DNA from: a bacterium
GTDB taxonomy: Bacteria > UBA8248
Assembly (NCBI GenBank): GCA_965213685.1
Contig: CBDBZY010000018.1
Coordinates: 736,001-800,000, forward strand
Direction of reading: 5' to 3'
Length of the DNA stretch: 64,000 bases
Position numbers and translations under genes: made by a program. Below, piece by piece: positions 22,350 to 37,010 of this stretch (within the stretch, counting starts at the first letter, position 1; every line of letters starts with the position of its first letter). The notes under the pieces were generated by a model. It worked only from the letters and a program-made list of their open reading frames with translations, did not search any database and was not told where the DNA came from.

Positions 22350-22604
22350 CATACTTCGTGCAGATGTCAGTGGCTATTCTGTTTTCATTTGCCAGGAAGA
22401 GTGCCCTTGCCAGGGTCTGGTAGGAGGGGCTGCAATCAGAATGAAGCCACAAGGTGAACATTTTTCTCTTTCGTGTGCCAAAATCTGAATGTGACATTTC
22501 AATTGCATCTAGAGCATCATCGTCCAGGTCCAGTTGAAGGCCAACATTGTACCAGTCAGTTATCTTCAGTCTCATAAGATCCTTCAGTTTGGGTTCAGGC
22601 ACAT
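22350..22604 (-). CDS. Death domain exon
   Basis: PKLKDL..DWYNVGLQLDL...LDAIE......RKMFTLWL....SYQTLARAL......IA. Confidence 0.85.
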
Positions 22605-34600: not shown

Positions 34601-37010
34601 CCCACCTCATGTGGTGAGAGGTAGCATGTCTGTGCATATATGTATGCTAGAATAACTGACATGGTTACCAGGTACACAGGAGGAGAGAGGGCTTCCTTAT
34701 TAGGAAGCATACTATCACCATGCTTGGCCAGGCTGTGTGGGTGTTTCCCAACTGTCTATGATGGGGCACAGAGACCACCTCCACCCTAACTAACAGCTCC
34801 TCCTCAAGCAGCCACTGCTAGAGAGGCAGCACTGCAGCACAGAAGAGACAGCCTAGCATCAAACATTACTAACTAGAGGAGTGGTGCAGCCGAGGAGGGC
34901 CTTGGAAACAAGAGAGACATGTCTACAGCAGATGAGCTCATATCAGCTCCCACGACTGCTCCTGAGACTGCACTGGAGGGAGAAGCTCGGCTGCAGTAGA
35001 GACACATGTCATTATATTTGCTGCAGTGGCTTGTTTGCTATAGAGAGAAAGGTTAGTCTTGAGACAGTTGCTCTAGAGAGATATATATTAGACAAGAGGG
35101 ACCTGCAGCTACACTATCTAGTTATAATCAACATGCTGTTTAATTAACTCTTAGTAGCAACTGCCTGGCATGAGAGATTGCTGGCTGATAATACTAGACA
35201 GACAAAAAGCCACAACAGCAATGCATGTGTGTACACACAGGGTGTATGCATGGCTCAGCACCATGCTTAGAAACACAGAAATCAATAGCATAAGAGTAGC
35301 ATATAAAGATATTAATAGTACCTAAACTAGGACATTGTGTACCCATTCACCTTCCTATTTAAAGCCTCTTTCTTTCTTAACCAATCTTTGTTATAGAGAG
35401 TAGTCAATCACTGCTTTGTTATCATTATGAAAATGGAATCAATCTAGGCTAATACACGAATGGCTTATAATTAGTAGCCTAATAGTAGGTGAAGTGATGA
35501 GAGGAGGTTGGGAAAAGGCCTGGTTGTGAAGTGCTGTAGTTATCTGTGCCTGCTCTTGTGTCTTCACTCTCATTTTAAACAGCAGGTTGACTTTCAAATC
35601 ACAGTTTTAACACTGTGCACCACTGCTATATGTCTGAACTTTGTACCCACCTTCTTATGTGATCAGTGGGTTACACGTGCAGGATTTTGAGTTGGCCAGG
35701 GGAGGGACACCAAAGCACATCCCCAGCATGGGAGACTAGGAACGTGACCTCAAGAAAACATACACACTCCATAGGTGTCAGAACCGTGGGGGGGGGGGGG
35801 GAGCTGGGGGTGCTATACCACCCCCACTTCTTACAGGAGGAAGTGAATAGGTCCACACCATCAACCCGACTGATGAGAGACGTGTCTGGAGGCAGTGCAG
35901 TGAGGTTATTATCACAATTGCCGGTGTTGTGCAGTAGTCTAGCTTGACCGCACATGCTATGTTAAGCGTATGGGCCCCACCCCATGGGACTCCTTCCCAG
36001 ACTGTATGTAACCCTGGGAACGAGACACAGGCACACCTTTCTATTAAAATTGCATAAGTGTGAATACTACTAACAGTTATATAAGATGGTCTACTCAGTT
36101 GAGCACCCACTTATAAACATCTTCCTACACATATATACGCACTCTGAGAATAATTTGAGAGACATTCGCTGAATACTTGCAGCCACTTTATGGGGGAGGG
36201 GACGTAGTCACACATAATATGGTACACATTTTGGATAGCCAAGGAAAGGTCCTTGATCTGCAGCACATGACCTCACGTACACAATGACATGCTTTGAACA
36301 ATATTTAATGGTCCGAAAAGTTAGACATCTTTATGTGCACTGAGTTTATGGTCTGTGTCTGGTGTTATTACATGAGGCCATGTGTAGAGGTCAGCTCATA
36401 CGTGCAGTGGACCAGTTGTAACCTCATTCACAGCATGTGAGGTAGAGTAAAGGTACTGACAGTCCATGCACACACCTGACTCAGAGTTGTAGTACAGGAG
36501 CTGATTGGTGTATCCTCGACCTTCACTGTCCTCTGGATCAGGAATGAAGCCTGTTATTGGTTGGTGGGTGGGACATTCTGCGTACCCTCCAGCATTGAGT
36601 AGATCTCCACTGGGCAATGCGACAAGACCAGAGTTCATAGTGTGTAGCATTTGGCCAGAGCTGACAATTCTCCTCCATACAAAGTTTTGGGAATTGAAAA
36701 CAGAGAGCTCATTGCAGAAGCCTGGACCACCACTGTTCCCGCCCATGAAGTACACGTTTGTGTGGTACGAGGTGACTGCAGCACCTTGGAACCATGATGG
36801 CAGCTCACCAGATGTCAGATATTTCTTCCATGATAAGGTTACACCATTGAACATCTCCACTTCTCGTGGTAGTGTGAACGTGCTTTTGTGCTGGAATGAC
36901 TTAAGCATGCCCCTAAACATCCAGAGTTGTGAGCCAATTGAAAATGTTGGGGCATCATAACGTTCCTCAGGATGGTATGAGCCAGTTGGCTGTGCAGGAG
37001 GCTCAGCCAT
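22350..37010 (-). CDS. Kelch-repeat / ROC-COR-like GTPase / ZU5 / UPA-like / Death-domain protein (>=1515 aa; 3' end not located)
   Basis: Exons 37010-36476, 33939-33779, 33018-32821, 32322-32148, 27410-25284, 25180-24659, 24577-24474, 24390-24238, 24177-23961, 23898-23800, 22604-22350; all GT-AG, phases compatible, no stops. Confidence 0.75.
22902..23534. mobile_element. AcademH-type non-autonomous element with a RecQ-like helicase relic, intronic
   Basis: TIR tagtctc..cccagacc / ggtctgggaacgagacta; internal IR agaggagggtctggtacagttggtacagaa; fragment LGYPVLKAEQLEAIRKFMKG-/DVFVSIPT resembles the RecQ Q-motif and motif I. Confidence 0.7.
23545..23771. repeat. (GA)n microsatellite
   Basis: Direct reading. 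Confidence 0.95.
24659..25180 (-). CDS. ZU5 domain exon
   Basis: SDGGTI..GFEMHIPPGAV..LSGPF.LP....ASPVY.I...F.KDV.L.I.H..; ends YLKHFC. Confidence 0.88.
25284..27410 (-). CDS. ROC-like GTPase plus COR-like exon
   Basis: G1 GAPGVGKTS, G2 RTST, G3 DCGGQPQF, G4 GTFKD; COR-like ALHFFHAVNLMFYF, YFMPSLL, VPSGVLCCL; 709 open codons. Confidence 0.9.
29485..29570 (+). mobile_element. tRNA-derived SINE head
   Basis: gtggctcagtagtaagag (A box), gggttcaaatccc (B box), T-run. Confidence 0.65.
32148..37010 (-). CDS. Kelch beta-propeller exons (1-4)
   Basis: VYFMGG..NELSVFN..W; VVWFGGWDG..NAVFILD..W; RQAHTA..MVMVGG..GDVWLFN..W; PRWWHG..VVAVAG. Confidence 0.85.

Follow-up and report, generated by a model that had tools for sequence, protein, structure and literature searches.

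A putative Kelch-ROC-COR-ZU5-Death gene and its tandem relatives in animal DNA co-binned with a bacterium

The locus and its gene model

The window analysed here is a stretch of 64,000 nucleotides (assembly GCA_965213685.1; contig CBDBZY010000018.1, here C18, positions 736001 to 800000), and the subject of this account is a gene on its minus strand that probably joins a Kelch propeller, a Roco-type GTPase module, a ZU5 domain and a Death domain (DD) in a single protein. Positions given below are those of the window unless a contig is named, with C4, C16 and C57 denoting other contigs of the same assembly. The gene model was read from genomic DNA alone: ten exons, all on the minus strand and with canonical GT-AG at every junction, join in frame into 4488 nucleotides, or 1495 codons and a stop. 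Contigs from 4 of 4 sequencing runs compared over 23900-28450 cover exons and introns without a break and contain no splice joints, so these runs are DNA. The encoded order is a six-blade Kelch domain, ROC-COR, ZU5, a presumed UPA region of ~180 residues, and the DD.

The Kelch part is split over four exons, K1 to K4. Exon K1 (36476-37010) starts with the ATG at 37010 and encodes blades 1 to 3 in 178 residues plus one base, ending in phase 1; an in-frame stop lies 16 codons upstream of this ATG, and the exon is open with a GT donor in 14 of the 14 Kelch-bearing copies of a tandem array described below. Exons K2 (33779-33939; blade 4) and K3 (32821-33018; blade 5) likewise keep their AG/GT flanks and open frame in 14/14 copies, and the direct joining of K1 to K2 yields a textbook Kelch repeat across the junction. 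Exon K4 (32148-32322; blade 6) ends in ...VLEF plus one base, in phase 1, at a GTGAGT donor. It is followed by the Kelch-GTPase intron (27411-32147; 4737 nucleotides), which holds microsatellites, two CpG-rich patches and an opposite-strand tRNA-Thr, and then by the large ROC-COR exon (25284-27410), which encodes 708 residues plus split codons. The ZU5 exon (24659-25180; 173 residues) carries a candidate H-F/C motif at 24734-24726 (the slash marking the possible cut) with a strand directly after it. Three short exons, at 24577-24474, 24390-24238 and 24177-23961, encode 34, 51 and 72 residues of the presumed UPA region, in frame and with GT-AG borders, and the last exon (22309-22604) encodes the DD and ends with a stop at 22309-22311. 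The module boundaries are in phase 1 throughout, which is the pattern expected of shuffled exons.

The original prediction for this locus described eleven GT-AG exons joined in frame; the splice sites and the frame stand, while the count falls to ten coding exons, which already supply all six Kelch blades. A strong acceptor 9 nucleotides before the ATG suggests an untranslated 5' exon, and this could be the eleventh. A candidate eleventh coding exon at about 36013-35833 was rejected because it ends in the wrong phase and lies inside a stretch that is absent from most paralogs. That stretch, a 1.3-kb piece of the K1-K2 intron at 35022-36328, occurs in only about four array copies, an insertion/deletion polymorphism between paralogs. 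At the 3' end, the predicted terminus at 22350 turned out to be a possible GTAAGT donor within the last exon, and the frame read through it runs to the stop at 22309-22311. No poly(A) signal (AATAAA or ATTAAA) was found within 800 nucleotides past the stop, which is uninformative. Upstream, a CpG-richer patch at 37600-38000 (minus strand; observed/expected ratio 0.75 against 0.39 for the window) lies 0.6-1 kb before the ATG and is a candidate promoter of a long, Kelch-first transcript.

The assembly is filed as that of a prokaryote, 94% complete with a contamination score of 3.7%, and its contigs fall into two sets. The first comprises 49 contigs of 61-69% GC, together 3.07 Mb and nearly free of microsatellites, and the second 22 contigs of 33-54% GC (4.90 Mb in total) that are mostly microsatellite-rich and carry introns and retrotransposons. 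C18, at 813 kb and 45% GC and with 481 long dinucleotide repeats, belongs to this second, lower-GC set. The observed/expected ratio of CpG is 0.39 over the whole window and 0.42 over the contig, a strong depletion. Because of its GT-AG introns, its retrotransposon fragments, its CpG depletion and the place of C18 in the low-GC set, the window is eukaryotic (animal) host DNA that was co-binned with a bacterium. Among named proteins, those of the sponge Halichondria panicea come closest to the large exon (24-25% identity), and in the Atlas its neighbours are clusters from molluscs and sponges, which makes a sponge host likely, though not proven. Host animal DNA makes up more than 60% of the nominally bacterial bin, despite the contamination score of 3.7%. 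The gene itself is flanked by reverse-transcriptase/endonuclease open reading frames of the long interspersed nuclear element type and other repeat-borne reading frames (356-871, 57762-58304, 61148-63999 and 17.6-19.8 kb), and the segment at 20.8-22.2 kb belongs to a repeat that occurs 50-180 times in the assembly.

Domains of the predicted protein

Six consecutive Kelch repeat units, recognisable by the GG doublet, the conserved W and the R..H pair, can be read in K1 to K4. The Pfam matches on K1 to K3 are each at or just under cut-off: K1 matches Kelch_KLHDC2_KLHL20_DRC7 (E = 7.1e-13), a Kelch propeller model reaches 48.8 bits against a cut-off of 50, K2 matches Kelch (E = 1.2e-6) and K3 matches Kelch_4 (21.0 bits against 21.6, E = 3.2e-4). 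The open reading frame of K4 gave no Pfam match. Kelch clusters in the Atlas were reached with a score of 0.95.

By Pfam alone the large exon would not be called, since Roc scores 16.2 bits against a cut-off of 27 and COR-A 18.3 bits against 35.3, and the ROC-COR assignment was therefore tested by alignment, profile and fold. In an alignment with 48 relatives, G32, K33, D208, G211, Q212 and D304 of ROC are invariant, and the consensus of the 48-sequence family reads GxAGSGKT, DSGGQPQF and VGTHxD. In the window the motifs are a P-loop, GAPGVGKT (27333-27310), DCGGQ of the form DxxGQ (26790-26776) and GTFKD of the form TxxD (26514-26500), all on the minus strand. A profile built from the 48 sequences matches LRRK2 in the PDB from G4 through COR (E = 4.4e-6), and it also matches the P-loop and switch regions of Rab and Ras. 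An AlphaFold2 (AF2) model of the exon has a mean predicted local distance difference test score (pLDDT) of 85.0 and a predicted template modelling score of 0.85. Foldseek places this model closest to the C. tepidum Roco structure 6hlu (E = 6.7e-12) and then to the RocCOR structure 3dpu (E = 7e-11), with LRRK1 and LRRK2 (over ~500-790 alignment columns) and M. barkeri Roco2 among the matches listed, which to rank 33 are Roco proteins without exception. Roc and COR-A clusters of the Atlas scored 0.98. On the modelled structure, we regard it as settled that the ROC-COR tandem predicted for this exon has a true Roco fold.

The G1 (GxxxxGK[ST]), G3 (DxxG) and G4 motifs of ROC appear intact, and GTP binding and hydrolysis are predicted from these motifs only. 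Inside ROC lies a disordered insert of 76 residues (27114-26887; residues 100-175 of the AF2 model, with pLDDT below 50). The proposal that a GTPase sits where comparable receptors carry a NACHT domain agrees with these results: the only match to a STAND NTPase is a 30-residue P-loop hit to nSTAND3 (17.5 bits against a cut-off of 27.2), and the fold is Roco, not STAND. Pfam detected no kinase or ankyrin match in any exon, and the N-terminus is Kelch, so the protein is not taken for an ortholog of DAPK1.

The ZU5 domain is well supported by Pfam (38.9 bits against a cut-off of 21, E = 1.1e-9), and the AF2 model of its exon (pLDDT 84.7) is an all-beta fold that spans the entire exon. Structural alignment of this model with VIA-align gives high-ranking matches to ankyrins (Z 12-13.5, with Z 13.5 for ankyrin-B 4d8o, a ZU5-ZU5-UPA-DD protein), together with rat NLRP1 (7crw, Z 11.7), CARD8 (7jn7, Z 11.0) and UNC5B (Z 9.2). 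Bearing on the question of autoprocessing are the cleaved ZU5 chains: residues 3-150 of the model align with that of rat NLRP1 (7crv_C, Z 10.1), and residues 2-150 align with residues 1091-1212 of that of human NLRP1 (6x6a_B, Z 8.8). Here, in the sequence H149-F150-C151, F150 falls on residue 1212, the last residue of the cleaved NLRP1 chain (F1212/S1213), and a strand follows at residues 152-158. F150 is invariant in an alignment of ten sequences. The residue after it is Cys, as KHFC, in 10 of 10 close copies, and Ser in the four distant homologs (4/4) as well as in the four divergent ZU5 copies of the array, as [KT]HFS (4/4), such that H-F-[CS] is kept in 14 of the 14 ZU5 copies of the array.

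The nucleophile of NLRP1 is Ser-1213, and Ser, Thr or Cys are able to start autoproteolysis of this kind (PMC3210808). Because H-F-C stands at the exact position of the NLRP1 cut and Cys is a permitted nucleophile, self-cleavage at F/C is chemically plausible by analogy. Against this, the nucleophile in the window would be Cys, as opposed to the Ser used by the cleavers named in the cited sections of PMC3210808 (PIDD, NLRP1, CARD8 and Nup98), and no report of a cleaving HFC-type ZU5 was found in the open-licence literature consulted. A mid-domain AHFAG, which aligns with PHFAS of ankyrin-1, was also considered as the cleavage site and was rejected, as the fold and the structural alignment place the site 54 residues further on.

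Between the F/C site and the DD exon lie the ~180 residues of the presumed UPA region, of the right size and in the right place, and split over four exons. The three short exons are open in all recovered copies (8, 9 and 6 copies, respectively), and in four distant homologs the equivalent of the first is contiguous with ZU5 in one open reading frame. However, UPA (Pfam PF17217) had no match in the exons or in a six-frame scan of the genome at the gene. The DD, in turn, is found by Pfam over profile positions 5-82 of 86 (32.8 bits against a cut-off of 22.6, E = 7.8e-8), and a genome scan with PF00531 places it at C18:758363-758587 (33.5 bits). Of the ZU5-UPA-Death end claimed by the original prediction, ZU5 thus stands by Pfam and fold and Death by Pfam, while UPA keeps the status of a presumption.

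The tandem array, its older relatives and the case for a single gene

The gene is one of a tandem array on one strand of C18, in which we counted 15 ROC exon starts, 14 of them with a Kelch cassette 4.7-13.6 kb upstream; the Kelch-GTPase intron measures 5.0-13.6 kb in the copies other than that of the window. Every Kelch exon copy (56/56) has an open frame and keeps its splice sites, and ten ROC-COR exons are intact with canonical splice sites, while the broken copies comprise two ROC exons split by insertions, one that is frameshifted and one fragment. Among array copies, the ratio of nonsynonymous to synonymous divergence (dN/dS) is 0.22 for ROC-COR, at a synonymous divergence (dS) of 0.23, and 0.17 for ZU5, at a dS of 0.36. 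Four copies, at C18:98.3-98.9 kb, 295 kb, 398 kb and 708 kb, are the [KT]HFS carriers mentioned above; their ZU5 is only ~29% identical to that of the window, and they have another type of Death domain downstream, so the array mixes at least two types of C-terminal cassette behind near-identical Kelch cassettes.

The Kelch exons evolve in a different manner, with dN/dS of 0.38 for K1, 0.93 for K2, 0.83 for K3 and 0.99 for K4. The introns between K2, K3 and K4 have a mean divergence among copies of only 0.031 per site and serve as a neutral proxy. Among the 14 copies of K2 to K4, at least four distinct codons occur in 20 of 176 codon columns, compared with 5 of 278 pseudo-codons of the introns (Fisher p = 2.2e-5). 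These hot codons have a mean pairwise nucleotide distance of 0.392, against 0.033 for the remaining codons and 0.031 for the introns, a 12-fold excess. Nineteen of the 20 hot columns fall at two places per blade, six of them in the two residues before the conserved His and 13 in the stretch after the GG/AG doublet. On the minus strand of the window they lie at 33892-33887 and within 33838-33815 in K2 (hot columns 16, 17, 34, 36 and 41), at 32964-32959 and within 32889-32875 in K3 (hot columns 19, 20, 32, 44 and 46-48), and at 32289-32284 and within 32214-32182 in K4. We take these positions to be the D-A and B-C loops, presumably the ligand-binding face in Kelch structures such as KEAP1. An excess of this size over the introns suggests that diversifying selection acts on a binding surface, as it would in a repertoire of receptors, and no other explanation at hand accounts for it easily. 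The hypervariable loops would fit a sensor role, in which the variability is observed and ligand binding is predicted. Judged from these comparisons, the contrast between the hypervariable loops and the purifying selection on ROC-COR and ZU5 is a receptor-like pattern.

A second family, on C4 and C16, is far more distant, with ROC-COR ~25% identical and Kelch exons 22-56% identical to those of the window. Here, K1 to K4 lie upstream of ROC-COR on the same strand in all four assessable loci, one of which is disrupted by an insertion; a fifth locus of this type, on C57, runs off the contig end. The K4 of this type ends in DTTVLQF plus A/GTGAGT, with a homologous residue and the same phase and donor in 5/5 loci, and a phase-1 acceptor with a polypyrimidine tract precedes the P-loop by ~20 residues in 4/4. 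The Kelch-to-GTPase intron spans only ~1.3-1.9 kb and has no CpG island. Shortly downstream of ROC-COR, Death-domain-like exons can be read at two C16 loci, of which Pfam Death matches only one (C16:51399-51632; 19.1 bits, below the cut-off of 22.6). Because paralogs of ~25% identity share the order, the phase and the K4 donor, Kelch-ROC-COR-DD is, to judge from the sequences, an old and maintained arrangement, with ZU5 and the presumed UPA as additions of the C18 family. Three of the C4 and C16 loci (C4:37-43 kb, C16:44.6-51.7 kb and C16:66.5-73 kb) would encode a shorter Kelch-ROC-COR-DD protein, with no room for ZU5-UPA.

Further afield, the ROC-COR exon has 1697 relatives at E <= 0.001, and among the best 150 most are ~500-800 residues long and apparently single-exon open reading frame calls. 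The partners seen in relatives of the exon are caspase, ankyrin, coiled-coil or DD at the N-terminus and ZU5 at the C-terminus. Pfam on eight of the longest of the 150 returned caspase, ankyrin or ZU5 partners and no Kelch; a search with the ROC-COR exon against longer proteins gave three matches, none with Kelch; and neither the C4-type Kelch exon (against proteins of 451-2000 residues) nor the ZU5 exon (against proteins of 304-2000 residues) gave any match. No related locus was confirmed in the metagenome and genome contig collections, searched with a protein query and a 9-sequence alignment. One relative (P0017) has a caspase domain fused N-terminally to ROC-COR, and the Halichondria relatives (3231-3341 residues) carry two or three ROC-COR units in one protein.

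Whether the Kelch and ROC-COR exons belong together is the point on which the architecture turns, and the sequence evidence makes a single gene likely. The junction claimed at 32148/27410 is exact: its donor is G/GTGAGT (K4 ending ...GAG TTT G), its acceptor is ...GAACAG/GC, and the two flanks share phase 1. Ahead of its P-loop the ROC exon offers no in-frame ATG, and a stop closely precedes the exon; lacking a start of its own, it must receive a phase-1 coding exon. K4, for its part, has no indel and no stop and keeps the same acceptor and donor in 14/14 copies, and the CAG of the ROC acceptor is kept in 15 of 16 aligned rows.

The alternative is that the locus holds two transcription units or has an alternative internal promoter, the fusion being an annotation artefact or a minor isoform. 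A stand-alone Kelch protein would then arise if the K4 donor were read through as far as the stop at 32062, or if the Kelch exons had a terminal exon of their own, and transcription of ROC-COR-ZU5-DD would begin in the CpG island (27.4-28.2 kb), at a putative small 5' exon. We consider this scheme unlikely, but several observations speak for it and weigh against a single gene. The CpG-rich patches that had been noted at 27.5-28.1 and 30.5-30.8 kb are real by measurement, as the segments at 27.4-28.2 kb and 30.2-31.0 kb have observed/expected ratios of 0.75-1.15 against 0.39 for the window. In a genome depleted of CpG, all 12 copies compared have an island immediately before the ROC exon, at a ratio of 0.8-1.2 where the contig as a whole has 0.42, and a GC-rich non-coding block is conserved 180-330 nucleotides upstream of that exon. 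One intact ROC-COR-ZU5-DD copy, at C18:78-80 kb, is without Kelch. Within the same copies, moreover, the Kelch block (95-96% identity) and the ROC-COR block (78-88%) have different divergence histories, and the intron between them is not only long and variable in length but partly duplicated. The conserved island and the Kelch-less copy together make an internal promoter, and a Kelch-less transcript, possible.

Against two units stands the fact that translation cannot start in the ROC exon before the P-loop. The sole candidate in the conserved block for an internal first exon, with an ATG 183-217 nucleotides upstream of the ROC exon and a phase-1 donor, was rejected: it is open in only 4 of 12 copies and broken in the other 8 (TAA in 7, no ATG in 1). 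The K4 donor and its phase are kept in 14/14 copies, and the deep paralogs have Kelch close upstream, in matching phase, with no CpG island in the intron. The Kelch-to-ROC link of the original prediction thus draws strength from 14 of 15 tandem loci and from the phase-1 junction that the deep paralogs share, and is weakened by the conserved CpG island upstream of ROC.

Three further observations concern this region. The Kelch-less copy (C18:78.4-80.6 kb) appears intact, and the 16.5 kb before it contain no Kelch cassette; it is either truncated or naturally Kelch-less. The intron segment at 28028-30707, which overlaps the CpG-rich patch at 30.2-31.0 kb whose observed/expected ratio reaches 1.15, is tandemly duplicated in many copies. 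A tRNA-Thr(AGT) lies on the plus strand at 29485-29557, inside the Kelch-GTPase intron (Rfam 60.2 bits, and ARAGORN).

Proposed function and comparison with known systems

On balance, we lean towards reading the gene as an intact member of a tandemly amplified animal family that encodes a cytosolic Roco-type receptor with an autoprocessed sensor-switch-death output. The six-blade Kelch domain would be the sensor, with a pair of hypervariable loops on each blade, one ahead of the conserved His and the other behind the GG doublet, and with a ligand that varies by copy and may be microbial, viral or allogeneic. The ROC-COR GTPase would be the switch, a nucleotide-dependent gate or dimeriser that takes the position of NACHT in NOD-like receptors. 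Autoprocessing at F/C would split the protein into two parts that remain bound to each other, Kelch-ROC-COR-ZU5 and UPA-DD, and the DD would be set free, or at least unmasked, to seed a death-fold complex for signalling once the receptor is activated or its N-terminal part destroyed. This output step we infer by analogy with NLRP1, CARD8 and PIDD1. Should the Cys be inert, ZU5-UPA-DD could instead serve as an auto-inhibited switch between closed and open states, as in UNC5B or ankyrin. The layout of sensor, switch, FIIND-like part and death fold in the original prediction is in keeping with what was found, namely Kelch, a Roco fold, ZU5 with H-F-C at the scissile position, and Death.

Several points weigh against this proposal. 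Beyond the sub-threshold Pfam scores of Roc and COR-A, the missing UPA match and the Cys at the position of Ser, the protein collections searched yielded no Kelch-ROC-COR protein, and an immune role is argued from architecture and variability only. A bolder extension, which we put forward tentatively and think doubtful, is that the family represents a third kind of animal intracellular immune receptor, with Roco for NACHT, a repertoire of Kelch loops and FIIND-like autoproteolytic release of the DD. Equally tentative is the corollary that such a receptor would bring NLRP1-style sensing by functional degradation to a GTPase chassis, in an early-branching animal with dense microbial symbionts.

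A different explanation accepts the same gene but gives it a non-immune role, as a Roco scaffold in the cytoskeleton, trafficking or developmental cell death, in the manner of DAPK1, ankyrin or UNC5. The Kelch domain would here be a generic protein-binding module, and ZU5-UPA-DD would stay uncleaved and auto-inhibited. Non-immune ZU5-UPA-DD proteins do exist, ankyrins and UNC5B rank high in the structural alignment of the ZU5 model, DAPK1 is itself a Roco protein with a death domain (PMC6320773), and the motif has Cys where proven cleavers have Ser. We nevertheless judge a scaffold of this kind unlikely. A tandem array of 14-15 copies is not predicted for a housekeeping scaffold, nor is an excess of divergence limited to 20 Kelch loop codons beside near-identical introns, and H-F-[CS] is kept in every ZU5 copy of the array. 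That the array is a decaying, unexpressed segmental duplication whose open frames reflect young age is very unlikely, for although some copies are broken and the array is embedded in retrotransposon fragments, ROC-COR and ZU5 have accumulated appreciable dS at low dN/dS, and the 56 Kelch exon copies and ten ROC-COR exons are intact with canonical splice sites.

If the fusion of Kelch to ROC-COR is true, the logic of NLRP1 and PIDD1 (sensor, NTPase switch, FIIND, death fold) can be built on a Roco GTPase. The physiological switch function of Roco proteins is still debated because of LRRK2, and the family would give them a specific candidate function, in immunity or in cell death. The array would also offer a receptor repertoire of sponge type whose variable residues are pinpointed, to 20 loop codons in three blades, and the sister copies with H-F-C and H-F-S amount to a natural experiment on ZU5 autoproteolysis.

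Among known systems, NLRP1 and CARD8 share with the predicted protein the ZU5 fold, a buried Phe followed by a nucleophile-capable residue at the scissile position, and a C-terminal death-fold domain, and NLRP1 in addition has sensor repeats and an NTPase switch ahead of this module. The differences are that ROC-COR takes the place of NACHT and an N-terminal Kelch that of leucine-rich repeats (LRR), that the motif is H-F-C rather than S-F-S, that the last domain is Death rather than CARD, and that the UPA is presumed and the cleavage predicted. PIDD1 (LRR-ZU5-ZU5-UPA-DD) is closer at the cleavage site, where its motif is HF/S (PMC3210808), with His at P2 as in the window, and it likewise has N-terminal repeats and ends in ZU5, UPA (presumed here) and DD. 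In contrast to PIDD1, the window protein has one ZU5 rather than two, Cys for Ser (with HFS in the four sister copies), and ROC-COR between the repeats and ZU5.

The DAPK1/Roco family (LRRK1/2, MFHAS1 and bacterial Roco) provides the ROC-COR tandem fold, and in DAPK1, too, a death domain follows ROC-COR at the end of the protein (PMC6320773). Here, however, there is no kinase, ankyrin or LRR, ZU5 stands between COR and the DD, the N-terminus is Kelch, and ROC has a disordered insert of 76 residues. Roco proteins of early-branching animals and protists combine ROC-COR with repeats and with death-fold or TIR modules, for which signalling or immune roles have been proposed. Dictyostelium has Roco proteins with Kelch or WD40, where, according to the cited sections, these repeats flank a kinase-bearing Roco (PMC6320773); Trichoplax has ROCOs with CARD, death, TPR and LRR domains (PMC4104024); sea anemones have Roc/COR with death and TIR (PMC5094078); and LRR-ROCO proteins of brown algae have been proposed as candidate immune receptors (PMC11378527). 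Atlas clusters add Roc, COR and Death in Mollusca and Roc, COR and CARD in Porifera. None of the Roco proteins described in the cited sections of these sources has Kelch together with a death fold, ZU5 after COR, or a tandem array with a hypervariable propeller.

The original prediction held the architecture to be undescribed, and this needs narrowing, as Roco proteins with Kelch and Roco proteins with death or CARD domains are already known; only the full Kelch-ROC-COR-ZU5-DD combination appears to be undescribed. Neither this chain nor the hypervariable-loop array was found in the open-licence literature (supplementary architecture tables excluded) or in the protein searches. A parallel in overall logic is offered by the fungal NACHT-WD40 proteins of the HET-E/D/R type, which are STAND proteins with a propeller sensor that is hypervariable between paralogs, a conserved NTPase switch and a death-inducing effector. 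The fungal proteins differ from the window protein in having WD40 in place of Kelch and NACHT in place of the GTPase, and they belong to a different kingdom.

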